From Candidatus Saccharimonadota bacterium (GTDB taxonomy: Bacteria > Patescibacteriota > Patescibacteriia > 2-12-FULL-60-25), in assembly GCA_016699205.1 (NCBI GenBank), contig CP064964.1, forward strand, positions 900,001-932,000: a stretch of 32,000 bases of DNA. The letters run 5' to 3'. The position numbers and the translations under genes were made by a program. Below the pieces are notes generated by a model that saw nothing but the letters and a program-made list of their open reading frames with translations, was not told the origin of the DNA and ran no database searches. This document shows, one piece after another, positions 209 through 26,728 of the stretch (positions are counted from its first letter, which is position 1; every line of letters starts with the position of its first letter).

Positions 209-209
209 T

Positions 210-836: not shown

Positions 837-840
837 TCCT

Positions 841-1266
841 ATGCCACTTCTCGACCGTTTCCTCAAAAAGGACGACGCTCCGGCTAAAAAGCCGGCTGCC
901 AAGAAGGCTCCAGCCAAAAAGGTTGCAGCCAAAAAGGCAGAAGCGACATCGGATAAGCCGGCCGTCACAGGCAAGGCCGACGCGATGGCGATCCGTCTTC
1001 TTACCAAGCCGCATGTCAGTGAAAAGGCTGCTCGCCTTGCTGACACTGGTACGTATGTCTTTGATGTTCCGATGAGCGCCGAAAAGGTGTCCATCCGCAA
1101 GGCTGTTGAATCGCTTTACAACGTTCATGTTGAAGGCGTCCGCATTATCCGCGTCGCCGGTAAACCGATGCGCCGCGGTAAGCGCGTCAGCTTCCGCCGC
1201 GATGTTAAAAAGGCTCTTGTCACCTTGAAGAAGGGTGAGACGCTTAGCCTGTACGAAGGAGTCTAA
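841..1266 (+). CDS. rplW: 50S ribosomal protein L23 with Lys/Ala-rich N-terminal extension
   Basis: ATG 841 in a TAATCCTATG junction; C-terminal part ...YVFDVPMSAEKVSIRKAVESLYNVHVEGVRII... is L23-like; conserved position between rplD and rplB. Confidence 0.9.
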   Translation: MPLLDRFLKKDDAPAKKPAAKKAPAKKVAAKKAEATSDKPAVTGKADAMAIRLLTKPHVSEKAARLADTGTYVFDVPMSAEKVSIRKAVESLYNVHVEGVRIIRVAGKPMRRGKRVSFRRDVKKALVTLKKGETLSLYEGV

Positions 1267-1270
1267 TCCT

Positions 1271-2110: not shown

Positions 2111-2119
2111 TCCACGCCT

Positions 2120-2440
2120 ATGTCACGAAGTCTCAAAAAGGGCCCGTTCACCGACGAGAAGCTTCTCGCCAAGGTGAAGAAAGCCGGCCCCGGATCCAAG
2201 ACCGTCATCAAGACCTGGTCGCGCGCATCCACGATTACCCCAGAAATGGTCGGTATGACGTTTGGCGTACACAATGGCAAATTGCACATCCCGGTGCATG
2301 TCGTTGAGAACATGGTCGGCCATAAGCTGGGTGAGTTTTCCCTGACGCGCAAGTTTACCCGCCACGGAGGCAAGTTGGCCAAGACCGACGCTGCCGCTCC
2401 GGCTGCTGCCGCTGCTCCGGCTCCGGCTGCCAAGAAATAA
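2120..2440 (+). CDS. rpsS: 30S ribosomal protein S19 (Ala/Pro-rich C-terminal tail)
   Basis: [10 protein letters not shown]...GVHNGK...GHKLGEF; conserved operon position. Confidence 0.95.
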
Positions 2441-2446
2441 ACGAAT

Positions 2447-2851
2447 ATGGATGTACACGCTTCCCTCCGTTTTCTCCGCATGTCGCCCCGCAAGGTCCGA
2501 CTCGTGGTTGATGCTGTCCGCGGCATGTCTGTTATGGCTGCCGAGACCAAGCTCACATTCTTGCCAAAGCTCGCTGCTACTCCGGTACACAAGCTTTTGC
2601 GCTCCGCTATCGCTAACGCCGAGCACAATTTTCATCTTAAGCCAGAGGATCTCTTCATTAAGACCATCGTCGCTGACGGCGGTCCGACTTTGAAGCGCTC
2701 CCGCGCCCGCGCCTTTGGCCGTGCGGCTCCGATCCGCAAGCGCACGACGCACATCACGCTCGTGCTCTCTAACGATGCACGCGAAGTAAAGGCAAAGAAG
2801 AAGGCACCGGCCAAGGCTAAGAAGGCCCCGGTTAAGACGGAAACCAAATAA
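2447..2851 (+). CDS. rplV: 50S ribosomal protein L22 (Lys/Ala-rich C-terminal tail)
   Basis: ...LRFLRMSPRKVRLVVDAVRG... L22 signature; operon position. Confidence 0.95.
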   Translation: MDVHASLRFLRMSPRKVRLVVDAVRGMSVMAAETKLTFLPKLAATPVHKLLRSAIANAEHNFHLKPEDLFIKTIVADGGPTLKRSRARAFGRAAPIRKRTTHITLVLSNDAREVKAKKKAPAKAKKAPVKTETK

Positions 2852-2855
2852 TCCT

Positions 2856-3656
2856 ATGGGACATAAAGTAAATCCTAAAGTTTTCCGCCTCGGCACTACG
2901 GTCACTTGGCCGTCGCGCTGGATGGCTCGTGACGATGCGTATCGCGCCAACTTGCGCCAGGATTTGGCGATCCGCGACTTCCTCAAGAAGGATCTCAAGG
3001 ATGCAGCGATTAGCCGTATTGAAATCGAGCGCTCGCGCGGCACGATGGCTGTAACGGTGCACTCGGCTAAGCCGGGTCTCGTGATCGGCCGTTCCGGTGA
3101 AGGCGCTGACGGACTCAAGAAGAAGCTTCTCAAGAAGTTTTTCCCGAGCAAGGCCAAGAGCGTCCAGCTCGCCGTTAACGTCGTCGAGATCGGACGTCCG
3201 TCTCTTGATGCCGCTCTCGTCGTCCAGGGCGTGATTGCCGACCTTGAGCGCCGCATGCCATTCCGCCGCGTCCTCAAGATGTCGATCGAACGCGTGAAAA
3301 AGGGCGGAGCCCTTGGCGTGAAGGTTGCCGTCTCCGGCCGTTTGAACGGTGCAGAAATTGCCCGCCGCGAATGGTTGGCTTGGGGCAAGATTCCGCTCAC
3401 GAACCTCCGCGCTGATATCGACTACGCTGCTGATGCCGCCCGCACGATGGCTGGTGCTATCGGTGTAAAAGTCTGGATCTATCGCGGCGACGTGTTTGCC
3501 CAGGATCGTTTGAACCAGTATCAGCCGACAACTCCTTCCCGTGGCCGCGGTGGTCGCGATGGAGATCGCGGACCTCGCTCCGCCCCGCGCGCTCCGCGTG
3601 GTGAAGCCGCTTCATTCGCCCCAACGGATAAGCCGGAAACGGCTCCCGCTGCCTAA
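2856..3656 (+). CDS. rpsC: 30S ribosomal protein S3 (Arg/Gly/Pro-rich C-terminal tail)
   Basis: MGHKVNPKVFRLG... KH domain; ...GAEIARREW... ; operon position. Confidence 0.95.
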   Translation: MGHKVNPKVFRLGTTVTWPSRWMARDDAYRANLRQDLAIRDFLKKDLKDAAISRIEIERSRGTMAVTVHSAKPGLVIGRSGEGADGLKKKLLKKFFPSKAKSVQLAVNVVEIGRPSLDAALVVQGVIADLERRMPFRRVLKMSIERVKKGGALGVKVAVSGRLNGAEIARREWLAWGKIPLTNLRADIDYAADAARTMAGAIGVKVWIYRGDVFAQDRLNQYQPTTPSRGRGGRDGDRGPRSAPRAPRGEAASFAPTDKPETAPAA

Positions 3657-3669
3657 TTAACCCACTCGT

Positions 3670-4080
3670 ATGTTGATTCCAAAAAAAGTCAAACACCGCA
3701 AGTGGCACAAGGGCCGCGCGCGTAACATCCGCACAGCGACAACCAAGCTTGAACTCTCGTTTGGAAGCTTCGGCCTCAAGGCGATGACGCCAGCCTGGCT
3801 CTCGAGTCAGGAGATCGAAGCAGGCCGCCGTGTTCTCACTCGCTACATCAAGAAGGGTGGAAAGGTCTGGATCCGCGTTTTCCCGGACAAGCCGATCACC
3901 AAGAAGGGTAACGAAGTGCCGATGGGATCCGGTAAAGGTGCGGTTGACCACTATGTCGCCGTCGTCCGACCGGGCACCGTGATTTACGAAATGGATGGTA
4001 TTCCGGCCGATCAGGCTAAGATTGCACTTCAAAGTGCGGCCTATAAGCTCTCGCCGGTGTGCAAGTTCATTAGCAACTAG
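3670..4080 (+). CDS. rplP: 50S ribosomal protein L16
   Basis: [16 protein letters not shown]... L16 N-terminus; operon position. Confidence 0.95.
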
Positions 4081-4083
4081 TCT

Positions 4084-4287
4084 ATGTCTAAAGAACTTCA
4101 GCAGAAGTCCGCCGCCGAGCTTAGCCGCGACGCCGCCGACCTGCGCAGCTCGATCCGTGAACTCCGGTTCAAGATCGCGACCCGTCAGCACGGAAAAGTC
4201 CGCGACATGCGCCTCAAGAAGCGCGACCTCGCACGACTCCTCACCGCTCTCGCCACAAAGCCAAAGTCCGAGATCACTCTTGCCTAA
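4084..4287 (+). CDS. rpmC: 50S ribosomal protein L29
   Basis: 67-aa helical protein between rplP and rpsQ; ...ELRFKIATRQ... pattern. Confidence 0.9.
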   Translation: MSKELQQKSAAELSRDAADLRSSIRELRFKIATRQHGKVRDMRLKKRDLARLLTALATKPKSEITLA

Positions 4288-4290
4288 CGT

Positions 4291-4572
4291 ATGAAATCCA
4301 CTAACACACAACCTTCCGCGAAAGCCGAAGGCCAACCACGCCGCCTCCAAGGTGTTGTCGTTTCCACGGCAATGCAGAAGACGGCTGTGGTCCGCGTGGA
4401 TCGCCGCGTGGCTCATGCGAAGTACGGCAAGTACTTCACGATTTCCAATAAGTTCAAGATCCATGACCCGGAGAGCGCTTGCAAACTGGGTGATGTCGTC
4501 GAGTTCCAGGAAACGCGTCCGATCTCCAAGGACAAGCATTTCAAGTATTTGTCCACGGTTTCCGCTGCCTAA
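4291..4572 (+). CDS. rpsQ: 30S ribosomal protein S17
   Basis: ...[30 protein letters not shown]... S17 OB-fold signature. Confidence 0.9.
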
Positions 4573-4573
4573 T

Positions 4574-4945
4574 ATGGTTCAACATCGCTCTATGCTCGCC
4601 GTGGCAGACAACACGGGAGCCAAACTCCTCCAGGTGATCCAGGTCACTGGCGGTTACAAGAAGCGCTACGCCGTACTCGGTGACGTTGTGACGTGTGTCG
4701 TCAAAATTGCCGACCCGCGTGGCACCGTAAAGAAGTCGGATGTCGTTAAGGCGGTTCTCGTGCGTACGCGCAAAGAGACGCGCCGCCCGGACGGCACATA
4801 TATTCGTTTCGATGAAAACGCCGGTGTTATCGTCGATCTCAAGAACAAGGAACCCAAGGGTACGCGTATCTTTGGACCTGTTGCGCGTGAATTGCGCGGT
4901 CGTGGCTATGCCAAGATCGTGTCGCTTGCGCCGGAAGTCCTCTAA
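4574..4945 (+). CDS. rplN: 50S ribosomal protein L14
   Basis: ATG 4574 (TAATATG junction); [17 protein letters not shown]...; the longer ORF from 4352 overlaps rpsQ and is rejected. Confidence 0.95.
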
Positions 4946-4951
4946 GCCTTT

Positions 4952-5224
4952 ATGATCAAACTCCAACTCAAAACGGGTGACGAAGTCATCGTCATTGCCG
5001 GAAAGAACAAGGGGAAGAAGGGGAAAGTCGTGCAAACGCTTCCCAAGCTTAACCGTGTCGTGATCGAAGGCGTGAACATGACCAAGCGCCACATGCGCTC
5101 GCGTCGTTCCGAGGACAAAGGCCAGGTGATCGAGTTTGCCATGCCGATCCACGCTTCAAACGTGCAGCCCGTTGGTTCCAACGGTAAACCGATGCGCCAC
5201 TCCAAGGCGCGTAAGACTGCCTAA
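4952..5224 (+). CDS. rplX: 50S ribosomal protein L24
   Basis: ...KTGDEVIVIAGKNKGKKGKV... KOW motif. Confidence 0.9.
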   Translation: MIKLQLKTGDEVIVIAGKNKGKKGKVVQTLPKLNRVVIEGVNMTKRHMRSRRSEDKGQVIEFAMPIHASNVQPVGSNGKPMRHSKARKTA

Positions 5225-5227
5225 CCT

Positions 5228-5764
5228 ATGACACTTCAAGAACGCTACAATAAGGAGATCGTTCCGGCTCTTACCAAGGAGTTCGGAATCGAGAACCGCA
5301 TGGCCGTCCCGAAGGTCACGTCGGTTACGGTTTCTGTCGGCTTGTCGCAAGGCATCAAGGATCCGAAGGTGCTTGAGATGGTTGAGGCAACGCTCCGCCG
5401 CATCACCGGACAGAAGCCGGTGAAGACCAAGGCAAAAAAGTCCATCGCGAGCTTTAAAATCCGTGAAGGTATGATCGTCGGTATGATGGTCACGATTCGC
5501 GGCAAGCGCATGTGGGATTTTCTCACCCGCTTCACCCAGTTCACATTCCCTCGCATCCGCGACTTCCGCGGTATTTCAAAGCAGGGCATTGATGGCCGCG
5601 GCAACTTCTCGATCGGCTTCCGTGAGAACCTCGCGTTCCCGGAAATCCGCCCGGATGAAGTCGAACGCGTGCATGGCCTCCAAGTCACCGTGTCCACCAC
5701 GGCCGGAACCCGCGAGCGCGGCGAAGCGCTCCTGCGCGCTCTCGGTTTCCCATTCAACAACTAG
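5228..5764 (+). CDS. rplE: 50S ribosomal protein L5
   Basis: MTLQERYNKEIVPAL...FPEI... L5 signature. Confidence 0.95.
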   Translation: MTLQERYNKEIVPALTKEFGIENRMAVPKVTSVTVSVGLSQGIKDPKVLEMVEATLRRITGQKPVKTKAKKSIASFKIREGMIVGMMVTIRGKRMWDFLTRFTQFTFPRIRDFRGISKQGIDGRGNFSIGFRENLAFPEIRPDEVERVHGLQVTVSTTAGTRERGEALLRALGFPFNN

Positions 5765-5767
5765 TCT

Positions 5768-5953
5768 ATGGCTACTCAAGCGCAAATCGCCAAGTCACTT
5801 CGTAAACCGAAGTTCTCTACACGTGAGGTCCGCCGTTGCTGGCGCTGCGGCCGTAAGCACGCTTTCATGCGCGACTTCGGCATCTGCCGCATCTGCTTCC
5901 GCGAACTGGCCAACCGTGGCGAGCTTCCGGGTGTGACCAAATCGAGCTGGTAA
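5768..5953 (+). CDS. rpsN: 30S ribosomal protein S14, zinc-binding type Z (61 aa)
   Basis: [23 protein letters not shown] = CxxC...CxxC; short form; between rplE and rpsH. Confidence 0.95.
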
Positions 5954-5957
5954 TCCT

Positions 5958-6350
5958 ATGTATACCGATCCAATTAGCGACTTTCTGACCCGCATTCGCA
6001 ACGCGTATGCGGCCGGACTCGACACGATGAGCGTGCCGGGTTCGCGTATCAAACTTTCGATCGCCAAAGTGCTCGAGCGCGAAGGTTTTATCGCCAGCGT
6101 CAAAGAATCTTCCGAAGGACCAAAGAAATCCTTGGAAGTGACCTTGAAGTATGACGGTAAGGTTCCAGCACTCCGATCGATCGACCGTATCTCCACGCCA
6201 GGTCGCCGCGTGTATTCCAAATCGATTGAACTGCGTCCGGTTTTGTCCGGCCAGGGTATTGCGATTCTGTCGACGTCGGCAGGTATCATGACCAACCGCG
6301 AGGCTCGCCGCCGCAAGCTCGGTGGAGAAGTTCTCTGCGAAGTTTCCTAA
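5958..6350 (+). CDS. rpsH: 30S ribosomal protein S8
   Basis: MYTDPISDFLTRIRNA... S8 N-terminus. Confidence 0.95.
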   Translation: MYTDPISDFLTRIRNAYAAGLDTMSVPGSRIKLSIAKVLEREGFIASVKESSEGPKKSLEVTLKYDGKVPALRSIDRISTPGRRVYSKSIELRPVLSGQGIAILSTSAGIMTNREARRRKLGGEVLCEVS

Positions 6351-6360
6351 TCTCTATTCT

Positions 6361-6909
6361 ATGTCTCGTATTGGCAAAAAACCGATTCTCCTGCCCTCGG
6401 GCATCGACCTCACGGTCGAGGCTGGGAAGGTGATCGTGAAGGGCCCCAAGGCTTCACTCACGGTTCCGCTTCCTCCGCACTCTTCTGTTTCTCTTGAAGC
6501 AGAACCCCGAAGCGCCGTCGTGAATGTTGAACAGCCGGATAACGTCTATCAGCGCGCCATCTGGGGTCTTACTCGCCAGCTCATCGCGAACGCGGTGGAA
6601 GGTTTGCAAAAGCCTTACGAGAAGTCTTTGGAATTTGTCGGCGTCGGTTACAAGGTCGCGCTTGAAGGCAAGACCGTTGTGATGGACGTTGGTTTTTCTC
6701 ACAGCATTAAATTTCCGCTTCCGGAAGGTATCGAGGGCAAAGTTGAAAAACAGGTGCTCACGATCTCCGGTGCCGATAAGCACATGGTTGGCGAAATTGC
6801 AGCCCAGATCCGCCGCAAGCGTCCGCCAGAACCTTATAAGGGCAAGGGTGTGAAATACACCGACGAAACGATTCGCCGCAAAGCCGGTAAGACGGCTAAG
6901 ACTGCCTAA
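6361..6909 (+). CDS. rplF: 50S ribosomal protein L6
   Basis: ATG 6361, MSRIGKKPI...; the longer ORF from 6322 overlaps rpsH and is rejected. Confidence 0.95.
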   Translation: MSRIGKKPILLPSGIDLTVEAGKVIVKGPKASLTVPLPPHSSVSLEAEPRSAVVNVEQPDNVYQRAIWGLTRQLIANAVEGLQKPYEKSLEFVGVGYKVALEGKTVVMDVGFSHSIKFPLPEGIEGKVEKQVLTISGADKHMVGEIAAQIRRKRPPEPYKGKGVKYTDETIRRKAGKTAKTA

Positions 6910-6918
6910 TCCACTCCT

Positions 6919-7278
6919 ATGTCTCTCAACACTTCCAACGCCCGAGCCCGCCGCATCGCACGCGTGCGCGCCAAGGTCACCGGCTCGAACGAGCGTCCGC
7001 GTCTCGCGGTTGCCCGTACGCTCGCGCATATCTATGCGCAGGTTATCGATGACCGTGCTGGCAAGACGATCGCCGCTGCAAGCGACGCCGATCTTTCCGA
7101 CGCCGACCGCAAGGGTAAAACCAAGTCCGAGATCTCGACATTGGTGGGCAAGCTCGTCGCCGAGCGCGCCAAGGCCAAGGGCATTTCGTCGGTCGTTTTT
7201 GACCGCCGCGACAAGCGTTATCATGGCCGCGTAAAAGCCGTCGCTGACGGTGCGCGTGAAGCCGGATTGACTTTCTAA
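6919..7278 (+). CDS. rplR: 50S ribosomal protein L18
   Basis: ...[12 protein letters not shown]...[17 protein letters not shown]... L18 signature. Confidence 0.95.
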
Positions 7279-7281
7279 TCT

Positions 7282-7959
7282 ATGAACGAAGAAACAAACA
7301 AGCCGAACCCAGAAGTCGCCGCTCCAGCACCTGCTCCGAGCGCTGCTGCTCCTGCTGGTCGCGGAGGTTTCCGTGGTCAGGGTGGCCGCGGTGGTGATCG
7401 CCGTGGCGGTCCGGGCGGCCAAGGCGGCCGCGGTGGACGTGCCGGAGGCGGTCGCGACCGTCGTCCGCGTATGGATGTCCCGGCTGAAGCCGACTACGAA
7501 GAAAAGAACATTGAAGTCGCCCGTGTTACGCGTGTGACCAAGGGTGGTAAGCGCATGCGCTTCCGCGTCTTGACCGTTATCGGTAACCGCAAGGGCCGTG
7601 CCGGATTTGGCTTGGCCAAGGGCGTGGACGTTGCCGGTGCTACTGCCAAGGCAACGACTCAGGCTCGTAAAGCTCTCTTCACTGTTCCGCTTGTCAAAGG
7701 AACGATTCCGCATGCCGTAGAAGCCAAGTTTGGCGCCGCGTATGTGATCTTGAAGCCAGCTCCGGAAGGTACGGGTGTGAAGGCCGGTGGCGCTGTGCGC
7801 ATCGTGCTTGAACTCGCTGGTGTTCCGAACGTCGTATCCAAGATTCTTGGTTCCAAGAACAAGACCAACAACGTCAAAGCGACGTTTGCTGCCCTCCGCA
7901 AATTGCGTTTGTCCACTCGCACGGCAGCCGCTCAGGCTCCTGTAGAGAAGACCGCCTAA
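7282..7959 (+). CDS. rpsE: 30S ribosomal protein S5 with about 70-aa Ala/Pro plus RGG-rich N-terminal extension
   Basis: Core ...ARVTRVTKGGKRMRFRVLTVIGN... is S5; the N-terminus is GRGGFRGQGGRGGDRRGGPGGQGGRGGRAGGGRDRR. Confidence 0.95.
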   Translation: MNEETNKPNPEVAAPAPAPSAAAPAGRGGFRGQGGRGGDRRGGPGGQGGRGGRAGGGRDRRPRMDVPAEADYEEKNIEVARVTRVTKGGKRMRFRVLTVIGNRKGRAGFGLAKGVDVAGATAKATTQARKALFTVPLVKGTIPHAVEAKFGAAYVILKPAPEGTGVKAGGAVRIVLELAGVPNVVSKILGSKNKTNNVKATFAALRKLRLSTRTAAAQAPVEKTA

Positions 7960-7963
7960 TCCT

Positions 7964-8401
7964 ATGTCTCTTACTCTCAACAACCTCGCGCCCAAGTTTG
8001 GCTCGCGCTCCAAGCGTTTCCGCATTGGTCGCGGTGCTGGTAGTGGTCGCGGCAAGACCGCAGGTAAAGGTACGAAGGGTCAGAAGTCCCGTACTGGCGG
8101 TACGCACAAACTCAAGCTCAAGGGCTTGAAGCAGATGCTGCTGTCCTTCCCAAAGAGCCGCGGTTTCCTTAGCCGCTACGCAAAAGTCGCTTCCATTCCG
8201 CTCAAGCGTCTTTCTGTCTATGCTAGTGGAGATACGGTTTCTATCGAGACGCTGCGCGAGAAGGGACTGATCAACCGTATCGATCTTGAGGCCAAGATTG
8301 TCGGCAACGGATCGTTCGACAAAAAGCTTACCGTTAGCGGCGTTGCTGTGACGGCAGGTTCCAAGGCAGCGATTGAAGCAGCAGGCGGTTCGGTCAAATA
8401 A
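7964..8401 (+). CDS. rplO: 50S ribosomal protein L15
   Basis: ...GRGAGSGRGKTAGKGTKGQKSR... L15 signature; follows rpsE after 4 nt, leaving no room for rpmD. Confidence 0.93.
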   Translation: MSLTLNNLAPKFGSRSKRFRIGRGAGSGRGKTAGKGTKGQKSRTGGTHKLKLKGLKQMLLSFPKSRGFLSRYAKVASIPLKRLSVYASGDTVSIETLREKGLINRIDLEAKIVGNGSFDKKLTVSGVAVTAGSKAAIEAAGGSVK

Positions 8402-8422
8402 ATCTTCCTTCCTTTTCGTCTT

Positions 8423-9700
8423 ATGTGGGAAAAGCTCATGCAAGCTTGGCGTGTGAAAGAGGTGCGCAATGGCCTCCTCTTTGTGCTCGGAATGATGATC
8501 ATCTTCCGCGTCATGGCCAATATCCCGCTGCCGGGAGTCGATCTTATCGCGCTCAAGCGTTTCTTTGAGGCGAACCAGGTTCTCGGTCTCCTGAACTTGT
8601 TCTCGGGCGGTACCATTGAAAACTTCAGTATCGTGGCACTGGGTGTCGCTCCGTATATTACGGCGTCGATTATTTTCCAGTTGTTGGCGATGATTTTTCC
8701 TCGTCTCGAGGAAATCCAGAAAGATGGAGAGGCCGGACAGCGCCGTATCAACCAGTGGACGCGCATGCTAACGATTCCGCTCGCCATCATCCAGTCATTC
8801 AGCTTGCTGCAATTGCTCGGTCAGTCGGCGACCCCGATTTTGACCAATGCCGATCCGCTGCACATCGTGATGATTATCGCGACCGTGACCGGTGGAACCA
8901 TGTTGCTCATGTGGATGGGTGAATTGATGAGCGAGAAGAAAGTCGGCAACGGCATCTCGATGCTTATCTTTGCCGGTATTATTGCCGGATTGCCGAGCTC
9001 GCTTTCGCAGCTTTTGGCAACGACGGACACCTCGCAGTGGTTGACCTATGTGCTGTACGCCGCCGTGGCGATCGGTATGGTTGCCGGTGTCGTGTTTGTG
9101 TCTGAAGGCCAGCGCAATGTGCCGGTGCAGTATGCCCGTCAGTCGCGCGGTTCTAGCGGTTCGATTGGCGGCGTCGGTTCATCGCTTCCGTTGCGCGTGA
9201 ACTTGACCGGTGTTATTCCGATCATTTTTGCCATCTCGCTCTTGCTCTTCCCGTCGGTGATTGCCCAATTCTTTACGCAGGCGCGTACGGTTTGGATCTC
9301 ACAGGCTGCGACATGGGTGATCGTGACCTTGCAGAATCAGACGGTATACGCCGTGCTCTACTTCTCGTTGGTCGTGATCTTCACGTACTTCTACACGTCG
9401 ATTGTGTTCCACCCGGACCGTATCGCCGAGAACATTCAAAAGCAGGGCGGATTTATTCCGGGTATTCGCCCGGGTAAGCCGACGGCCGAGTATCTCCAGA
9501 GCGTTGTGAATCGCATCACGCTTGGCGGAGCTCTCTTCCTTGGTCTTATTGCCGTCGCCCCGTTGATTGCGGAGGCGGCACTTGGTACGCAGTTGATCGC
9601 CCTTGGCGGTACATCGATTTTGATCGTTGTTTCCGTCGTCGTTGAATCGATTAAGCAGATCCAGTCACAGATCACGATGCGCGAGTACGACGTGTACTAA
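8423..9700 (+). CDS. secY: preprotein translocase subunit SecY
   Basis: 425 aa, about 10 hydrophobic segments, ...GVAPYITASIIFQLL... SecY signature; canonical position after rplO. Confidence 0.95.
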   Translation: MWEKLMQAWRVKEVRNGLLFVLGMMIIFRVMANIPLPGVDLIALKRFFEANQVLGLLNLFSGGTIENFSIVALGVAPYITASIIFQLLAMIFPRLEEIQKDGEAGQRRINQWTRMLTIPLAIIQSFSLLQLLGQSATPILTNADPLHIVMIIATVTGGTMLLMWMGELMSEKKVGNGISMLIFAGIIAGLPSSLSQLLATTDTSQWLTYVLYAAVAIGMVAGVVFVSEGQRNVPVQYARQSRGSSGSIGGVGSSLPLRVNLTGVIPIIFAISLLLFPSVIAQFFTQARTVWISQAATWVIVTLQNQTVYAVLYFSLVVIFTYFYTSIVFHPDRIAENIQKQGGFIPGIRPGKPTAEYLQSVVNRITLGGALFLGLIAVAPLIAEAALGTQLIALGGTSILIVVSVVVESIKQIQSQITMREYDVY

Positions 9701-9713
9701 AGCATCAAGCAGT

Positions 9714-9772
9714 AAACATGGAACATAGAGCATCTGAGCGGTATAATGCTCCAGGCTCTATGTTCCATGTTT
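9714..9772 (+). terminator. 18-bp perfect inverted repeat hairpin (AAACATGGAACATAGAGC / GCTCTATGTTCCATGTTT) with 23-nt loop containing TATAAT, followed by a T run
   Basis: Arms at 9714..9731 and 9755..9772 are exact reverse complements; the loop has a nested GAGC/GCTC stem around GGTATAAT; TTTT follows. Confidence 0.5.
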
Positions 9773-9779
9773 TATAGCT

Positions 9780-10430
9780 ATGGCACGTGTACGCTTACGA
9801 GCCCTTTTGTTTGGTCCCAATGGGGCCGGCAAGACCACGCAAGGCCAACTTTTGGCCGAGCGTTATAGCGTTCCATTTGTGTCTGCCGGAAATGTTTTGC
9901 GGGCAGAGATCGCTGAGAAAACGGCGATTGGAAAAATGGTTGAGTCGTATGTGGAAGCGGGTATGCTTGCGCCGGATGAATTAGTTGATGCGATCGTGCT
10001 TAAGCGGCTCAAAGGGTTGGCCATGGAACGCGGTTATGTACTTGATGGATTTCCGCGTAATGTGGAGCAAGCTGTGGCGCTCGATAAACTATTAAAACCG
10101 AATCTTGCCATCCAGTTAAAGCTGTCGGATGCCAGCGCGCTCAAACGGCTGAAGGGGAGATTTGTTTGCGAAGGATGCCGAAGTGTTTTTCATCGGGAAT
10201 TTGGGTTGGAGGATATGTTGTGTACGGTTTGCGGAGGAAAGCTTGTAACACGTAAAGATGATGCCGAGGATGCGGTGCGGCGCCGGCTCGCGGTTTATCA
10301 TTTTATGACCGAGCCATTGGCGGCGCATTATCGACAGAGAGGAATTTTGCTTGCCGTTAATGCGGATCAGTCGATTGCGGATTTACATGAAGAGTTGTGC
10401 AAGAAAACACAGAAGCTCGGATTCGCCTGA
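9780..10430 (+). CDS. adk: adenylate kinase (Cys4 zinc lid)
   Basis: P-loop GPNGAGKTT; lid CEGC...CTVCGG; canonical position after secY. Confidence 0.93.
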   Translation: MARVRLRALLFGPNGAGKTTQGQLLAERYSVPFVSAGNVLRAEIAEKTAIGKMVESYVEAGMLAPDELVDAIVLKRLKGLAMERGYVLDGFPRNVEQAVALDKLLKPNLAIQLKLSDASALKRLKGRFVCEGCRSVFHREFGLEDMLCTVCGGKLVTRKDDAEDAVRRRLAVYHFMTEPLAAHYRQRGILLAVNADQSIADLHEELCKKTQKLGFA

Positions 10431-10433
10431 TCT

Positions 10434-11216
10434 ATGTCCATGATTAAAACGCCGGAAGAAATTGAGGCGCTACGCGAAGGCGGAGCGCTGCTTTCACGTA
10501 CGCTCGCGGAAATCCGTAAGGCGTGTGTGGCCGGTGTTACAAGTGAAGAGCTTGATGCGATTGCGATCAAGCGTTTTGCGGAAGCCGGAGGGGAGCCGAG
10601 TTTTCTTGGGTATAAAATCGACAAAGACGGCTCGGCGTTTCCGGGGGCGCTTTGTGTTTCGATCAATGATGAAGTCGTGCACGGACTGCCGATTCCGGCG
10701 CGTGTGATTAAAGAAGGAGATATTGTCGGACTTGATATCGGGGTTTGGTATAAGGGTTTGTGTACGGATATGGCGACGACGGTTATTGTCGGGAAGACGG
10801 ATGAGAAGACGCGGAAGCTTGTCGAGGATACACGCGAGTCGCTTGTCCGTGCGCTTCAGGAGGTGCGTGCTGGAAAATTTGTGCACGATATCAGTAATGC
10901 AATCGACGATTATTTGACGCCAAAGGGGTACGGTATTGTCAAAGATTTGGTTGGCCATGGCGTTGGACATGCGGTTCATGAAGAGCCTCAGATTCCGCAT
11001 TATCGTGAACGCCGTGCGCCGCGGATTAAGTTGGAGAAGGGTATGGTTCTTGCGATTGAACCAATGGTGACGCTTGGCGATTGGCGCGTGTACATGAAGG
11101 ATGATCAGTGGACTATCGCAACGGAGGATGGGAGTACGTCGGCGCATTTTGAGGTGACAGTGGCGGTCACGGATACGGGATATGAGCTCATTACCCCTTG
11201 GCCGGATCAAGGGTAA
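10434..11216 (+). CDS. map: type I methionine aminopeptidase
   Basis: Metal-ligand pattern GLDIG...CTDMA...GHGVGHAVHEEP...LAIEPM...AHFE; alternative ATG at 10440. Confidence 0.95.
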   Translation: MSMIKTPEEIEALREGGALLSRTLAEIRKACVAGVTSEELDAIAIKRFAEAGGEPSFLGYKIDKDGSAFPGALCVSINDEVVHGLPIPARVIKEGDIVGLDIGVWYKGLCTDMATTVIVGKTDEKTRKLVEDTRESLVRALQEVRAGKFVHDISNAIDDYLTPKGYGIVKDLVGHGVGHAVHEEPQIPHYRERRAPRIKLEKGMVLAIEPMVTLGDWRVYMKDDQWTIATEDGSTSAHFEVTVAVTDTGYELITPWPDQG

Positions 11217-11219
11217 CGG

Positions 11220-11248
11220 TTGACAAAACGTCAAAAATTTGCTAAGTT
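11220..11248 (+). promoter_or_regulatory. sigma70-like promoter: TTGACA - 17 nt - TAAGTT
   Basis: TTGACA at 11220..11225, 17-nt spacer, TAAGTT at 11243..11248; GGAGG at 11266..11270 lies 8 nt before ATG 11279. Confidence 0.4.
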
Positions 11249-11278
11249 GAGCCTACGGAATTTACGGAGGTACTTTTC

Positions 11279-12406
11279 ATGTCGGCAGTGGCGTTTTTCG
11301 ATTCCCGTCTCCAGCGTCCGATTTCTCTGCGCGTTTCTGGTGAGGTGATTCGTCGTCAGGCGTATCCCTTTCCCGATCCCAAGCTCGTCGTCATCGCCGA
11401 GTCGGCGGGGGATGGGCGTACAGGCAAGGCGATTCTGCACTCGAAGGAGCTCAAGACGCGCACCAAGGGTGCGACCGAGCATCTCGAGATCTCCAACTCG
11501 TTCCGACTGCAGTCCATGCTCGAGCACATCGATCAGGGCGGCGTCTCGGAAGAGGAGCGGCTCAAGCGCCGTATCGACGAGCTCAGGACCGCGAGCGACT
11601 ACCTCATGCGCTCCGGTAAGCTCAAGGATGGCGATGCCAAGGAGATCACGCATCTCCTGCGTGCCATCGAGAACGATTTGGCGGCGCCCAAGCGCAATCC
11701 GCACAAGCTTGCGGCGAGCCGCAATGTCGGTAGCGGGCTTGGGTATCGGTCCCCGAAGGCGGGGAATCCGGTCGGGCCTGTGATCGCCATCGCGAGCCGC
11801 GGAGCGATCAAGCGTCTCGAGTCCCGCATCGCCGAAATTCTCGGTGTTCGGAGCTTTGCGAATCTGCGCCTTGCGCTTGTCACGGCCTTCAATCGCGAGG
11901 CCGAACAACTCTTCAAGGCTCTCAAGGAAGAGAAGGACATGCGTAACGGGGAGTTCCCGAAGCTGGTCGAGGAGCTCCGCTACATGCGCCTTCAGCCTTT
12001 CGAGGCTCCGTCGCGGCGCATCGAGCAGCTGTATGAGGAGTTTCGCTACGGCGATGCCAGCGAGATCGATACGTTTGCGGCCATCCGCCGCGAGCTGCAC
12101 GCCGTGCTCCTCGTGTGCGTGGTCGAGCGGCAGGTCATTCGACGGCTCTCGTACATGACGCATCGCTCGCTCGAGGAGAGCAAGATGAAGGAGCATCGCG
12201 AGGCCGCGATCCACTCGATCGTCAAGATCGCCAAGCATGTTGCGGCCTGCAGCTCGTTCAGCCAGGATGCGCGGAGCATCGCGGCGACCAAGCTCGAGCA
12301 TGCGCGCAACATCCTCGCTCAGGAAGACCTGTTCGAGACCCCCAAGAAGCGCCTCAAGAGCGCCGACAAGATTCTCAAAGAGCTGACGGCGATTCTGCCC
12401 GTCTGA
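11279..12406 (+). CDS. hypothetical protein (375 aa, charged, probably helical, no motif recognised)
   Basis: Long ORF with promoter and SD; GC3-rich codons; about 65% GC in three sampled 60-nt lines versus 42-53% in sampled adk/map/fpg lines; the co-extensive antisense ORF is judged a shadow. Confidence 0.7.
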   Translation: MSAVAFFDSRLQRPISLRVSGEVIRRQAYPFPDPKLVVIAESAGDGRTGKAILHSKELKTRTKGATEHLEISNSFRLQSMLEHIDQGGVSEEERLKRRIDELRTASDYLMRSGKLKDGDAKEITHLLRAIENDLAAPKRNPHKLAASRNVGSGLGYRSPKAGNPVGPVIAIASRGAIKRLESRIAEILGVRSFANLRLALVTAFNREAEQLFKALKEEKDMRNGEFPKLVEELRYMRLQPFEAPSRRIEQLYEEFRYGDASEIDTFAAIRRELHAVLLVCVVERQVIRRLSYMTHRSLEESKMKEHREAAIHSIVKIAKHVAACSSFSQDARSIAATKLEHARNILAQEDLFETPKKRLKSADKILKELTAILPV

Positions 12407-12411
12407 CACCT

Positions 12412-12465: not shown

Positions 12466-13276
12466 ATGCCGGAATTACCAGAAGTCGAGACTGTAAGACG
12501 TCAATTACATGCCGGTTTGGCGGGCAAAATGATTGTATCGGTGACGCTTTTGAAGTCGGGGAGGGAGAAGCCGGTTGGGAAGCGATTTGTTGAGGTTGTT
12601 GTCGGGAAAACAATCGAGGGTGTTGAGCGGCGTGCGAAGCTGCTTGTTTATCGATTTACCGATGGAACGGCGATGACGGCGCATTTGAAAATGACGGGGA
12701 AGTTCGTTTTTGTTGATGACGAGTATGTATCGACCAAAACATGATCGAATGATTTTTGAATTAGGAGATACGCGATTGGTTTGGAATGATGTAAGGCGAT
12801 TTGGTTTTGTGCATTTTGTTTCCGGAAAAGAGCTGGAGGAGATTTTATCGAAATATGGACCGGAGCCGCTGGAGTCGCATGTCACGCTACTCGCGACACG
12901 CTTCATCAAGCCAAAGACGAGAATGGTGAAGGCGGCGCTTTTGAATCAGGCGGTGATTGCAGGAGTTGGGAATATTTATGCGGATGAAGCGTGCCATCGA
13001 GCGGGGATTTTGCCGACGAGACGATTGGGAAAGATGAAAGAAGCGGATCGAATAAATTTAATAAAGCATTTGAAAGAGTTGCTGGATGAAGCGGTGAAGC
13101 AGCGGGGGACGAGTGCGAATGATTATGTGGATACGGAGGGGAAAAAGGGAGGGTTTTTATCGCTGTTGCGGGTGTATGGGAGGGAAGGAGAGAAGTGTTT
13201 GAATTGCGGAGGTGCGATCAAGAGAATAGTTGTGGCGCAGAGAGGGACGCATTATTGCGGAGGGTGTCAGAAATAA
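12466..13276 (+). pseudogene. mutM: formamidopyrimidine-DNA glycosylase, interrupted by a frameshift
   Basis: MPELPEVETVRR... (catalytic Pro2/Glu3) in frame 1 stops at 12744; ...KHDRMIFELGDTRLVWNDVRRFG...CLNCGG...HYCGGCQ zinc finger continues in frame 2; removing one A from the A4 run 12736..12739 restores ...DDEYVSTKHDRM... Confidence 0.85.
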
Positions 13277-13729: not shown

Positions 13730-14401
13730 ATGCGATTACTTGTCGTAGAAGATGATCGCCAGGTTTCACAAGCGTTAAAGGATGTTCTTACGAAACAGTC
13801 TTTTAGCGTTGATACGACGGCGACGGGGGAGGATGCTTTGCGTTTAGCGAACGATGTTGCTTACGATGTCATTCTACTTGATTATGTCTTGCCTGGTATT
13901 GATGGAAAGCAAGTTTGCAAGATATTGCGCGAGCGCGGATTTCATACGCCGATCTTGATGTTGACTGTCCGATGCGAGACATCGGACAAAGTCTGCGCTT
14001 TGGATGAAGGTGCGGATGATTATTTGACCAAGCCGTTTTCAACGGATGAATTGGTTGCGCGCGTGCGTGCATTGCTGCGACGTTCGAAGGCGTTCCAGTC
14101 GGATACGTTTCAGTTGGATGATTTGGTTATCGACGGCAAACGTCAGCGTGTTGTTCGTGGTCAGCGCGAGATTTATTTGACTCGAAAAGAATTTGGTTTG
14201 TTGGAGTATCTCATGCGCAATCAGGGCGTTGTGCTTTCCCGTACGGATATCATGGAGCATGTTTGGGATAAGTCGGCTGACCCTGGATCGAATACGATCG
14301 AGACGCACATGATGACGCTTCGTAAGAAGGTCGATGAGGCGGGGAAGTCAAAACTTATCCACACGGTACAAGGGCGTGGTTACAAGATAGAAGTGCAGTA
14401 G
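13730..14401 (+). CDS. OmpR/PhoB-family response regulator
   Basis: Receiver MRLLVVEDD...ILLDYVLPGIDG...TKPF; winged helix ...LTRKEFGLLEYLMRN...TVQGRGYKI; ATG 13730 preferred over TTG 13721. Confidence 0.92.
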   Translation: MRLLVVEDDRQVSQALKDVLTKQSFSVDTTATGEDALRLANDVAYDVILLDYVLPGIDGKQVCKILRERGFHTPILMLTVRCETSDKVCALDEGADDYLTKPFSTDELVARVRALLRRSKAFQSDTFQLDDLVIDGKRQRVVRGQREIYLTRKEFGLLEYLMRNQGVVLSRTDIMEHVWDKSADPGSNTIETHMMTLRKKVDEAGKSKLIHTVQGRGYKIEVQ

Positions 14402-14460
14402 AAGATAAAGTCTTTATATAGATTTTATACTTGTTAAGATTTGAATGTTGTACTGTAGAG

Positions 14461-14489
14461 TTGATTCGGGGTCGACGAATCAACATATT
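14461..14489 (+). promoter_or_regulatory. inverted repeat TTGATTCG-N7-CGAATCAA overlapping a possible promoter (TTGATT - 17 nt - CATATT)
   Basis: Arms 14461..14468 / 14476..14483; CATATT 14484..14489, T7 run 14488..14494; could instead be the regulator gene terminator. Confidence 0.3.
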
Positions 14490-14513
14490 TTTTTATCCAC
14501 GCACTATTATATT

Positions 14514-14627
14514 ATGAACAAGCTCATCGAGAAGGTTCTCTCGGACGCATCTGTGCGTACGAATGGATCAGCTGGCTCTGTAGCCATCGCACTCGCTTCT
14601 GAAGAGTTCGCACCTTGGGGCCACTAG
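14514..14627 (+). CDS. 37-aa mini-ORF MNKLIEKVLSDASVRTNGSAGSVAIALASEEFAPWGH, candidate signalling-peptide precursor
   Basis: In-frame ATG inside listed ORF 14445..14627; the preceding 23 codons are AT-rich and overlap the repeat/promoter-like sequence; lies between regulator and kinase and is followed by a hairpin. Confidence 0.4.
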   Translation: MNKLIEKVLSDASVRTNGSAGSVAIALASEEFAPWGH

Positions 14628-14630
14628 TAT

Positions 14631-14702
14631 AAAAGAGACGATCCTTGCGGAAATCATGTTTTTTACATACGTTAGTTTCACCGCATGAAGATCGTCTCTT
14701 TT
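14631..14702 (+). other. long-range hairpin (13-bp perfect stem) enclosing the kinase start codon
   Basis: AAAAGAGACGATC 14631..14643 / GATCGTCTCTTTT 14690..14702; additional TGCGG/CCGCA pairing 14646..14650 / 14681..14685; T6 run 14699..14704. Confidence 0.5.
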
Positions 14703-16071
14703 TTGTACCGATTTTTCATCTCGCCTGTCAGCGAAGATGAGGATGGTAAGCGCCAAGAGTATATTCTAAATATTCTCCTGGTAAGTGCTTCGGCGCTATT
14801 GTTTTGCTTGTTTTTGATCGTTTGTTTGCAGCAAGCCTTCATCAAAGGCTATCAAGGTATTTCACCTGTCATAGCGTTTTTAGCTACAGTATTTTTTTCT
14901 AGCTTGTTGCTTCTTTCGCGGAAGGGGTTTTCTCGTATAGCCTCGTATTCCATTGTTGGGATTTTATTTCTTTATATTTTTTATGCGAATTATTCCTGGG
15001 GGCCAGATTTGCCTATTACGTGGATCCTGTATTGCTTTCTTATCACTATTTCTGGAATTTTGATCTCATCGCGTTTTGCTTTTTTTGTCACCACTGCGAT
15101 CGCTTCTGCTTTGATCTGGCTTACTTGGATGTTGAATGGCGGATACCTCGTACTTGCTCGAGATTGGAAGCAAACAAGTTTTTTATCTGGAGACGCCGTG
15201 GCAGCTTCTATCGCGTTTGCTTTGATCGCTATTTTTTCTTGGTTAGCAAATCGCGATCTTCGCGCTTCACTTCAGAGAGCACGTGTTTCGGAAGCGGCAT
15301 TACAAGTAGAACGTGATCAGCTTGAAATTAAAGTAGAAGAACGCACCAAACAGTTAAAGGAAGCTCAGGAAATCCAGTTGGAGCAGATGACGCGTTTTGC
15401 CGAGTTTGGCCAGCTTGCGAGCGGCATCATGCATGATTTGGCTAATCCGCTTACATCAATGTCGATCAATTTGCAGATGGTGAAGGATCAGGTGCCAGAG
15501 GATGTGCGGGATACAAATACATATATGGACCAGGCGCTACAAGCGACGAAGCGCATGGAGGAACTGGTGCAGGTTGCGCGACAGCAGTTTCAAAAGAAGC
15601 CGGATACGATTCCGTTTTCTTGGTGATGAGATTGAGCAAGCGGTGCAATTGCTGCAATCCAAAGCTCGGCCAGCGCATGTTTCCTTTGATTTGATGGATA
15701 TTGAACGGATCGAGTCTGTCGGAAGTCCGTTGAAGTTCCATCGGGTTGTCATGAATCTTTTGGCGAACGCCATTGAAGCCTATGCCGAATCCGATGTCGC
15801 TTATGAAGATCGTCTTATTCGGGTAACCTGCCACGAGAACCAGGGTGATGCGGTTATTGAGATTATTGATAAAGCCGGAGGAATTTCAAGCGAGCATTTG
15901 GAAAAGATTTTTAATCCGTTTTTTACAACCAAGAAAACCGGTAGTGGAATCGGATTGCCGACCGTGAAAGAGATTCTTCAGAAAGATTTTTCTGCGACGA
16001 TCGATGCCACAAGTACCAAAGATCAGACGGTATTTGAAATTCGTCTGCCGATACGCAAGAATCTAACTTGA
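14685..16071 (+). pseudogene. sensor histidine kinase with about 6 TM segments, interrupted by a frameshift
   Basis: Polytopic N-terminal half, coiled coil, H-box ASGIMHDLANPLT in frame 0 stops at 15626; N-box VVMNLLANAIEA, G1 [16 protein letters not shown]2 GSGIGLP continue in frame 1; removing one T from T4 15615..15618 gives ...KKPDTIPFLGDEIEQAVQLL... Confidence 0.85.
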
Positions 16072-16072
16072 T

Positions 16073-16936
16073 ATGGATATCGGCATCCGTGAACGGCTAT
16101 TGAGCACGGTTCGAAATTCACAGGATGTTGACGGCGGATTTACCAGCCTGAGCTCGCCGGACCCGGTTCATTTTTTGTCGTCGAGCCAGGCTTATCGGAC
16201 GAGTTTTGTGGCGGCGCATGTTTTGATAGCGCTTGCATCGTCGCGGGTTGAGGGTGCGGAAGATATCAAGGAAAAGATTGCCAGCTTTCTCTTGCGGCAA
16301 ATTTCTGAAACGGGTGCCGTGAATTATTGGGCGAGAGATTCAATCGAGGCAAAAACGAAACCGTATCCTGATGATCTTGATGATACGGCTTGCGTGATTG
16401 CCGGCTTAGCTTTGCATGATAAGAAGATTTTGGACGGCGAGTTACTTGGAAAAATTGTCGCTGCTTTACTCGCTTGCGAAGTCCAGCCGGGCGGGCCTTA
16501 TCGAACATGGCTTATTTCTGCTGATGCGAATCCTGTTTGGCGAGATATTGATCCGACTGTGAACGCACATCTGGCTTTTGCTTTGGGGAGTATTGAGATT
16601 GATTTGCCTGGTTTGGATGATTATTTGAGTAGCGTTTTGAACGATCAACAACTCCAATCGCCTTATTATCCAAATGAACTTTCCGCACTGTCTGCTTTAT
16701 CGAGACGGCCTCAGGGGCGTGAATCTGCGATTGTCGGACGTGTTCTCGCGTTACGGAATGGATTGACATGGGGAAATCCTGTGGCTGACGCGCTGGCTTT
16801 GGGGATATTGTTGCGTTTGGGGGATGTGAGCGGTTCATGGGGGTCTGAGATTGAACAATTGGCTCGAGCGGAACAGAGCCCTGCGCCCTACGCTTTTTGT
16901 ATTGATCCATCGCAGAAAGGCGTGAAGCATTTTTGA
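16073..16936 (+). CDS. prenyltransferase / squalene-cyclase-repeat (alpha/alpha barrel) protein with class II terpene cyclase motif DxDDTA
   Basis: QDVDGGF repeat; PYPDDLDDTACV (16370..16390) resembles the squalene-hopene cyclase catalytic motif; starts 1 nt after the kinase stop; ends at TGA 16934..16936. Confidence 0.7.
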   Translation: MDIGIRERLLSTVRNSQDVDGGFTSLSSPDPVHFLSSSQAYRTSFVAAHVLIALASSRVEGAEDIKEKIASFLLRQISETGAVNYWARDSIEAKTKPYPDDLDDTACVIAGLALHDKKILDGELLGKIVAALLACEVQPGGPYRTWLISADANPVWRDIDPTVNAHLAFALGSIEIDLPGLDDYLSSVLNDQQLQSPYYPNELSALSALSRRPQGRESAIVGRVLALRNGLTWGNPVADALALGILLRLGDVSGSWGSEIEQLARAEQSPAPYAFCIDPSQKGVKHF

Positions 16937-16948
16937 GGAGCATCGGCT

Positions 16949-18001
16949 TTGACGGCGGCGCTTCTTCTCGAGGCGCTATCGCTGGTCAGCGTGGATACTG
17001 TTGTGCAGCCAAGTTATTCAAGGGCAGATGAAATACATGAGCGCATTGTTGAACAAGCGTATGTTTTTATACAGAGTCTTGCGCCTGAGTTTTCAAAAGC
17101 GGCTCGCGTAGCAATCGAGTTGGCTATAATAAAAGATACGAAACGCCAGATTACGCTTACGCCGTTTATGGCAGCTGGCTTACTCGGTGAGCGTGGAGAA
17201 AAGGTATCGGAGCGTGCGATTGAATCGCTTGGGCTTGCGAGTCTGTTTGGCTGGCTTTCGTATACGCTTTTGGATGATGTGATGGATGGAGATCGTGATG
17301 CGAGCGCATTGCCTTTAGCTTCGACCTTTTTGCGAAAGATGCAGAGCGTTTTTGATGAAGTGCTTCCGGAGAATACGCATTTTCATCGATGGGTGATGCG
17401 GATGATGAATCGCGTTGATGCTTCCAATGCTTGGGAATTATCTTATTGTCGTTTTCAAGTTAAAGACGGTCGGATTTTTTTGCCAGAAACCATTCCTTCA
17501 TTTCGCGAGGACTGGATGCTGTTTGGGCGATCGATCGGACATGCGATTGGTCCGGTTGGTATTTTGTGCGAGCTTGGAGAGTCGCCGGAGAATGTTGTTG
17601 GCCAAGAGATGCTTGCTCGTTATTGTGAATTAATTCTCGTCAAACAGATGCATGATGATGCGCATGATTGGGAGTCGGATTTGATGCGCGGTCAGATGAA
17701 TTCTGCAGGCGCTCGCGTGCTTGAGCGATGGTATCGATTGCATCCGGAGAAACGAGGGAGCCAAGTTCTTATCGATGAAGTCAGGGAAGAGTGGCGGACG
17801 ATTTTTTGGATGGAGATTCTGCCAGTGTATTCCCAAGAAATTGTGCAGCGATGTGAGCGTTCTATTGAAAAGCTGCGAAGGTCAGAGCATCTTGTTACGC
17901 CGGAGAATCTGATTCATGGCTTTGAACGAGTCGCTAAAGGTGCGCAGGAAGCGCTTTCAGGGCGCGAAGAAATGCTGAAGTTTCTGAAGACTTTGAAGTA
18001 G
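16949..18001 (+). CDS. class I isoprenoid-synthase-fold protein (two Asp-rich motifs), ComQ / polyprenyl-synthase-like
   Basis: YTLLDDVMDGD (DDVMD 17273..17287) and QMHDDAHDWESDLMRGQMN (DDAHD 17654..17668); TTG start 8 nt after GAGGAG; same reading frame as 16073..16936. Confidence 0.65.
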   Translation: MTAALLLEALSLVSVDTVVQPSYSRADEIHERIVEQAYVFIQSLAPEFSKAARVAIELAIIKDTKRQITLTPFMAAGLLGERGEKVSERAIESLGLASLFGWLSYTLLDDVMDGDRDASALPLASTFLRKMQSVFDEVLPENTHFHRWVMRMMNRVDASNAWELSYCRFQVKDGRIFLPETIPSFREDWMLFGRSIGHAIGPVGILCELGESPENVVGQEMLARYCELILVKQMHDDAHDWESDLMRGQMNSAGARVLERWYRLHPEKRGSQVLIDEVREEWRTIFWMEILPVYSQEIVQRCERSIEKLRRSEHLVTPENLIHGFERVAKGAQEALSGREEMLKFLKTLK

Positions 18002-26654: not shown

Positions 26655-26728
26655 AGGGGCGTCGTATAATGGTAGTACAACGGTCTCCAAAACCGTTAGC
26701 GTGGGTTCGATTCCCCCCGCCCCTGCCA
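26655..26728 (+). tRNA. trnW: tRNA-Trp (anticodon CCA), 3' CCA encoded
   Basis: 7-bp acceptor stem AGGGGCG/CGCCCCT; anticodon stem ACGGT/ACCGT with loop CTCCAAA (CCA at 26687..26689); T arm GGGTTCGATTCCC. Confidence 0.93.

Follow-up and report, generated by a model that had tools for sequence, protein, structure and literature searches.

A 32,000-nucleotide stretch of the genome of a Candidatus Saccharimonadota bacterium (assembly GCA_016699205.1, contig CP064964.1, positions 900,001 to 932,000 of the forward strand; hereafter the window, numbered from its first letter) carries a conserved cassette of four genes. In order, these encode an OmpR-type response regulator, a mini-open reading frame (mini-ORF) of 34-41 aa, a HisKA sensor kinase with six membrane helices, and a fusion enzyme with a cyclase-like and a prenyltransferase-like domain. 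The reading favored here, with a confidence slightly better than even, is that of a self-contained peptide-signalling or RiPP (ribosomally synthesized peptide with post-translational modifications) cassette, in which a Trp of the short peptide would be prenylated, the attached chain would be cyclised, and the product would be sensed by the adjacent kinase. A first-pass annotation, made from the sequence alone, had described five co-oriented units at this place and had suggested that they may be a remote counterpart of ComQXPA in a host outside Firmicutes, serving prenylated-peptide signalling or making a RiPP, with an additional cyclase-like barrel. All five units lie at the coordinates it gave, and the proposal stands as far as the layout, the peptide and the protein folds are concerned, but sequence homology to comQXPA was not found. 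The features of the cassette are the following.

13730..14401, plus strand: OmpR-family response regulator, with a receiver and a winged-helix DNA-binding domain (Pfam Response_reg, E 1.3e-28; Trans_reg_C, E 1e-25)
14460..14494, plus strand: hairpin with a 9-bp stem and then a T-run, a terminator-like prediction between the regulator gene and the mini-ORF
14514..14627, plus strand: candidate precursor-peptide gene (the mini-ORF), 37 aa, MNKLIEKVLSDASVRTNGSAGSVAIALASEEFAPWGH, with homologues directly upstream of the kinase
14685..16071, plus strand: polytopic sensor histidine kinase, frameshifted at the T-run 15615-15618 (Pfam HisKA and HATPase_c)
[quoted passage not shown]
16934..16936, plus strand: in-frame TGA that splits the fusion gene, with the same frame on both sides and a Cys codon in relatives
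16937..18001, plus strand: C-terminal domain of the fusion enzyme, an all-alpha trans-isoprenyl-diphosphate-synthase (trans-IDS) fold and candidate Trp prenyltransferase (AlphaFold2, two Asp-rich motifs)

The four genes occur together with great regularity. A pattern scan restricted to one genome per species found a relative in 115 genomes, from which the best 80 loci were taken. Gene-neighborhood counts come from 83 related loci, whose ORFs were clustered into families, and mini-ORF counts from a six-frame search of 84 sources with a hidden Markov model (HMM) built from mini-ORFs. The first-pass annotation had suggested looking for the same arrangement in related genomes, and it is present: of the 83 loci, 82 have the fusion, 81 the kinase and 71 the regulator. 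The regulator is missing from some loci mostly because the contigs end there, and no further gene family occurs in more than 16 of the 83. Three contigs reached via homologues likewise carry the fusion and its kinase and regulator along with a small ORF. The 80 cassette-bearing genomes are labelled, or are syntenic, as Patescibacteria, and the labels of the metagenome-assembled genomes (MAGs) among these best 80 loci include Saccharibacteria, Microgenomates lineages, Paceibacterota, Doudnabacteria, Colwellbacteria and others. The same cassette is found under the labels Gammaproteobacteria, Vitreimonas, Bacillota, Methylomirabilota or Sulfotelmatobacter (L009, L010, L016, L029, L033, L050 and others); these non-Patescibacterial labels are probably wrong. 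A tblastn search of 72,556 plasmids with an intact fusion returned no match.

The mini-ORF is more than a chance reading frame, because all 78 HMM matches with E<0.01 sit at one place, on the kinase strand and immediately upstream of the kinase, with none elsewhere in the 84 sources. When one weaker match is counted, the mini-ORF is present in 79 of the 79 sources that contain the region; three sources that lack it start within the kinase gene. Loss or disruption of the mini-ORF in relatives, which the first-pass annotation had named as the observation that would tell against it, was not seen, and the invariant Trp is kept in every readable region. The homologues are 34 to 41 aa long and begin with a leader (positions 1-16, consensus M-x-x-L-[LI]-K-K-[IV]-L-T-D-K-x-A-R; MNKLIEKVLSDASVR in the window) in which L9 (77/79) and R15 (76/79) are nearly invariant. 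The middle of the peptide varies by clade from hydrophilic to strongly hydrophobic. The Trp is invariant (79/79), is preceded by Pro in 55 of the 79 (70%), and is followed by 1 to 7 residues; in the window it is Trp35, with its codon at 14616-14618, and is followed by Gly-His. Among the three closest peptide sequences, codon differences are 5-8 synonymous against 2-3 non-synonymous. As judged from the alignment, a putative recognition leader, a variable core and one fixed residue constitute the anatomy of a RiPP or pheromone precursor.

The enzyme had first been described as an isoprenoid-enzyme pair. Both parts are present with the motifs ascribed to them, but they belong to one gene and one frame, split only by the TGA at 16934-16936. 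Relatives have TGC or TGT (Cys) at this site. The fusion homologues are single proteins of about 600-670 aa that cover both halves, and close relatives, 84-96% identical, have an intact fusion of 642-643 aa; three of these, P0144 (96% identical), P0147 and P0151, read KHFCGAS where the window reads KHF*GAS. A recoding of UGA was considered and rejected. Two further genes of the window, those for adenylate kinase and for the sensor kinase, terminate in TGA, and the only tRNA-Trp of the window has the anticodon CCA; thus, TGA is an ordinary stop here.

The N-terminal domain is a cyclase-like barrel, as had been proposed, and the model confirms a class II terpene cyclase fold. Its ORF, including the TGA, spans 16073-16936, with PDDLDDTA at 16367-16390, and the AlphaFold2 model, made with a 127-row alignment, has a pLDDT of 93.6. 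The best Foldseek match is the class II domain of the drimenol synthase AsDMS (9m7f; E 8.6e-8, TMq 0.72), followed by a small squalene-hopene cyclase (8pak) and MstE (6sbc; E 2.3e-5); 1sqc is also among the matches, and classical squalene-hopene cyclase and drimenyl diphosphate synthase rank lower. All of the 65 members compared (65/65) keep D100, D101, L102, D103, D104 and T105, many aromatics are invariant too, and 38 of 65 members give weak matches to Pfam SQHop_cyclase_C. The domain thus has, by its modelled fold and its DxDD motif, the marks of the monodomain MstE-like class II terpene cyclases, and cyclase activity is predicted for it.

The C-terminal domain, whose 350-aa ORF (16949-18001) carries LDDVMD and HDDAHDWESD, is modelled with a pLDDT of 95.5 as a trans-IDS fold. 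Nearly all of the top 50 Foldseek matches are synthases of farnesyl, geranylgeranyl or hexaprenyl diphosphate or isoprenyl diphosphate synthases akin to them, with E values of 3e-5 and weaker, TM scores of 0.5-0.67 and identities of 10-18%. The first Asp-rich motif, LDDVMD, lies at 17270-17287 and the second, QMHDDAHDWESD, at 17645-17680. Across 114 sequences D109, D113, R129, E163, Q233, D236, D240, W241 and D244 are invariant, and D110 of the first motif, YDDxxD, is at least 90% conserved. The second motif has the consensus Q-L-N-D-D-A-H-D-W-E, read as Q-M-H-D-D in the window, with the invariant Gln233 three residues before the motif. The Lys/Arg-rich motifs with which chain-elongating synthases bind isopentenyl diphosphate appear, from a reading of the family consensus, to have no counterpart. 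The first-pass annotation had held that its proposal would fail if the 350-aa product proved to be an ordinary prenyl-diphosphate, squalene or phytoene synthase; despite the trans-IDS fold, no Pfam or NCBIfam model of such an enzyme matches it. More generally, neither half gave anything significant against Pfam, NCBIfam or PDB sequences, whether searched as single sequences or as a 63-member profile. The family itself is large. In an exhaustive profile search, 1835 clusters (50% identity) matched with E<=1e-3, of which 1296 reached E<=1e-30, and the top 150 of these matches are mostly proteins of 600-700 aa with the same domain order, together with a few shorter fragments that have only the C-terminal domain.

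A possible source of the prenyl donor is seen in a minority of loci. At 16 of the 83, a canonical polyprenyl synthetase (PF00348, E 1e-58) is found beside the fusion; in 13 of these it lies directly downstream, often with a 4-nt overlap. Examples are the following.

L005:6962-7912, polyprenyl synthetase neighboring the fusion
L021:6911-7957, polyprenyl synthetase neighboring the fusion
L024:6826-7893, polyprenyl synthetase neighboring the fusion
L018:2253-3290, polyprenyl synthetase neighboring the fusion

An adjoining canonical synthetase fits a supplier of prenyl donor better than a redundant synthase, so that the IDS-fold domain of the fusion itself would do something else. Five positions ahead of the first Asp-rich motif, some clades have a small residue (Ser, Ala or Gly) and others have Phe, a difference that hints at different donor chain lengths.

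The kinase was described in the first-pass annotation as polytopic, with about six membrane segments, no obvious extracytoplasmic domain and a frameshift, and each of these statements holds. A 19-residue hydropathy scan of the repaired protein finds some six membrane helices within residues 30-184, connected by loops of 3-10 residues, and with loops this short the kinase has no extracytoplasmic domain. In the window the two domains fall in different frames, HisKA in the 5' one and HATPase_c in the 3' one; once repaired, the kinase is 462 aa long, as are the intact genes of the related loci L084 and L085. Alignment of the window protein with 73 orthologues shows that H250, N362, D396 and the G-box glycines G400, G422 and G424 are invariant and that G398 is present in 96%. 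The kinases form one coherent family of orthologues whose catalytic residues are intact. An overlap of 4 nt between the kinase and fusion genes is frequent in the relatives, in which the two genes would often be translationally coupled.

The regulator, identical in protein sequence to NCBI QQR60659.1, matches only general OmpR-type models of NCBIfam, every one of them below cut-off. Among its homologues, which account for the 71 loci given above, 67 of 74 copies are on the same strand. The hairpin that follows the gene is kept in L084, L085 and L086, and its stem is retained in the centroid fold. It could be a terminator, an attenuator or a palindrome bound by the regulator, and it possibly splits the regulator from a unit made up of the mini-ORF, the kinase and the enzyme.

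The route that we infer, from the substrate through its chemistry to the pairing of ligand and receptor, would run as follows. The 37-aa peptide would be bound by way of the leader conserved at its N-terminus. The C-terminal domain of the enzyme, holding a prenyl diphosphate (C10 to C20) on its Asp-rich motifs, would alkylate the indole of the invariant Trp. The acid of the DxDD motif in the N-terminal domain would then protonate the distal double bond of the attached chain, and the ensuing cyclisation would leave a cyclic terpenoid on the Trp. After removal of the leader and release, the hydrophobic product would partition into the membrane, where the six-helix, loop-less kinase would sense it and phosphorylate the OmpR-type regulator.

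The enzyme architecture is of a known kind, and the closest known enzyme is ChrPC. In the account of it given in PMC13290415 (citing Hubrich et al. 2024, Chem 10:3224), ChrPC joins a prenyltransferase domain of the trans-IDS kind to a cyclase domain like MstE. Its substrate is a ribosomal peptide encoded nearby, on which an internal Trp first receives a prenyl chain from a C10-C20 donor, and this chain is cyclised afterwards. The present enzyme is likewise a fusion of a prenyltransferase-like with an MstE-like cyclase domain, encoded by a single ORF of 600-700 aa in 82 of 83 loci, and its folds and motifs agree with that description of ChrPC. The present enzyme has its cyclase domain at the N-terminus and, in the proposed scheme, acts on a precursor of 34-41 aa with its own leader; a polytopic kinase and an OmpR regulator always accompany it, and its hosts are Patescibacteria. 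The coupling to a kinase and regulator, the short precursor family and the breadth within Patescibacteria appear to be new.

With the comQXPA system of Bacillus the cassette shares an IDS-fold enzyme, a short peptide with a Trp near its C-terminus, a polytopic kinase without an extracytoplasmic domain, a response regulator and a co-oriented cluster. The differences are several. The kinase is of the HisKA kind with about six helices and not of the ComP type; the regulator, by its Trans_reg_C domain, is of the OmpR type and not a NarL-type ComA; the order is regulator, peptide, kinase, enzyme; a class II cyclase domain is added; and no pherotype polymorphism is seen. The regulator type and the gene order had already been listed as differences in the first-pass annotation, and both are borne out. 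The likeness to comQXPA is functional and architectural, and is not one of homology.

In two other systems an IDS-fold enzyme has beside it a peptide with Trp at or near the C-terminus, as in ComQ/ComX and the present cassette. PalQ of Paenibacillus alvei is a ComQ-like IDS-fold Trp prenyltransferase encoded next to its peptide PalX, with the adjacent kinase PalP (PMC10853753), and in Sphaerobacter thermophilus (Chloroflexi) StheX, the partner of StheQ, is prenylated on the Trp second from the C-terminus (bioRxiv 10.64898/2026.08.29.745113). PalX differs from the present peptides in that it belongs to the NHLP-type precursors and has its Trp strictly at the C-terminus, and StheX in its 69 aa; neither PalQ nor StheQ has a cyclase domain, and their hosts are Firmicutes and Chloroflexi. 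On the cyclase side, MstE and the class II domain of AsDMS are among the top structural matches of the N-terminal domain (TMq 0.66-0.73) and have the DxDD-type acid motif in common with it. MstE cyclises a prenyl chain that is already on an aromatic ring, as is proposed for the N-terminal domain. Identity to the two is 16-19%, and, in contrast to the present enzyme, their substrates are small molecules and they are not fused to an IDS fold.

Several observations weigh against the proposed route from peptide to kinase. No exporter or protease is conserved across the 83 neighborhoods, no leader-cleavage motif is visible in the peptide set, and no prenyl diphosphate synthase gene lies within the 32-kb window. 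The second Asp-rich motif of the enzyme is a complete DDxxD, in contrast to ComQ and StheQ, in which it is a pseudo-SARM (second Asp-rich motif) of the form NDxxx (bioRxiv 10.64898/2026.08.29.745113), a motif repurposed for the recognition of Trp together with a conserved Gln shortly before it. With a complete motif, the C-terminal domain of the present enzyme might still hold a second metal, as do the synthases and the class I terpene synthases. Weak matches to Terpene_syn_C_2 (8/63) and Terpene_synth_C (4/63) are found among the family members. The kinship to ComQ and the polyprenyl synthases for which profile searches had been recommended did not emerge: the window protein matches no Pfam or NCBIfam model, polyprenyl_synt is matched weakly by 3 of 63 members, and hhalign against a ComQ sequence that was verified only by its matches to IDS models aligned only the first Asp-rich motif (E 0.16). 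In a comparison of the window with a relative 88% identical, neither the peptide nor the sensor half of the kinase showed an excess of divergence over the flanking genes of the kind expected of pherotypes; thus, pherotypes in the style of Bacillus are not evident at the scale of close relatives. Finally, both the kinase and the putative maturase are interrupted in the window.

These interruptions raise the question of whether the window copy is alive. Relative to close relatives there are three lesions within 5.3 kb. In fpg (formamidopyrimidine-DNA glycosylase, 12466-13276), the run 12736-12739 is one A longer than in the intact 269-aa gene of L085, the kinase has T4 at 15615-15618 where L084 has T6, and the fusion has TGA in place of TGC at 16934-16936. 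The cluster might then be a decaying set of pseudogenes in which the lesions are real and nothing functions, a reading in keeping with the density of lesions and with the NCBI annotation of the two enzyme halves as separate hypothetical proteins (QQR60662.1 and QQR60663.1). Both indels, however, fall in homopolymer runs of a MAG that is a single contig of 1,082,254 bp, which favors assembly error over decay for them. Homopolymer indels are the typical residual error of long-read assemblies; that this assembly is a long-read one is not stated in the record and is presumed here. Moreover, the housekeeping gene fpg is also affected, the sequence flanking the lesions is 87-96% conserved with the intact relatives and shows no further decay, and the mini-ORF is intact. 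At least the two indels are probably assembly errors, and a dead copy, the less likely explanation, is regarded as unlikely.

A second alternative accepts the modified peptide but makes it primarily an effector, that is, an antimicrobial or host-directed lipopeptide, with the kinase and regulator serving for autoinduction or for self-protection, in the manner of NisRK and nisin, and not for quorum sensing by cell density. In several clades the peptide has a strongly hydrophobic middle. Patescibacteria are mostly episymbionts, so that a membrane-active lipopeptide could act on the host, and RiPP clusters often come with an autoinducing two-component system. Immunity genes, however, are not conserved with the cassette across the 83 neighborhoods, and neither are ABC-exporter or protease genes; in addition, the minimal layout of four genes is closer to the pheromone systems comQXPA and palPXQ than to bacteriocin clusters. 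This role is judged improbable.

The third alternative is that the fusion is a bifunctional synthase of a free cyclic terpenoid or a membrane lipid, in which a class II cyclase is combined with a domain of the ionising class I or the chain-building type, and that the product of the mini-ORF is not a substrate but a small modulator of the kinase or an unmodified signal. Fusions of class II with class I domains are well known among diterpene synthases, the complete second DDxxD and the weak terpene-synthase matches point the same way, and a loop-less polytopic kinase could equally sense a terpenoid in the membrane. This is nevertheless thought to be the least probable of the three, because enzyme and peptide always occur together (79/79), an invariant Trp within a variable C-terminal half would otherwise be unexplained, the top structural matches are prenyl diphosphate synthases and not terpene synthases, and, according to PMC13290415, every characterised IDS-fold enzyme adjoining a short Trp-containing peptide prenylates that Trp.

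Positions 1-11216 of the window hold a ribosomal-protein/secY/adk/map operon, with the cassette just downstream, a synteny common to L001 and L085. SecY is 100% identical to that of L085, and the neighboring YceI-like protein is only 59% identical. At 11279-12406, on the plus strand, lies a 375-aa ORF without a Pfam match that is conserved and called in L001 and L085; an antisense ORF of 392 aa (11231-12409) mirrors it almost end to end and is probably a compositional artefact. The tRNA-Trp gene (anticodon CCA, 26655-26728) is the sole RNA-family match in the window, and the Rfam scan gave no match inside the cassette.

Patescibacteria, the candidate phyla radiation, account for much of the diversity of bacteria, are host-attached organisms with tiny genomes, and are not known to have a signalling system of their own. 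A pheromone-like cassette of four genes that is conserved in such reduced genomes implies a function worth its cost. Full-text searches of a library of papers found none that ties Patescibacteria to ComX-like peptides, to prenylated RiPPs or to quorum sensing of their own. The broader proposal, that Patescibacteria widely encode their own peptide pheromone, prenylated on Trp, cyclised, read by a dedicated intramembrane kinase, independent in its evolution of the comQXPA of Bacillus and represented in more than 1,300 protein clusters, is offered tentatively, at somewhat less than an even chance. If true, these ultra-small symbionts would gain their first described system dedicated to cell-cell signalling, and a cyclic-terpenoid RiPP would for the first time have an identified receptor; the signal would in effect be ComX-like with a polycyclic terpenoid head. 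The cassette already pairs a predicted cyclic-terpenoid RiPP with a candidate receptor, and the well over 1,000 divergent prenyltransferase-cyclase fusions with their matched short substrates constitute a resource for peptide lipidation and for terpenoid-peptide hybrids. The cassette provides a concrete handle on how Patescibacteria may sense each other or their hosts.

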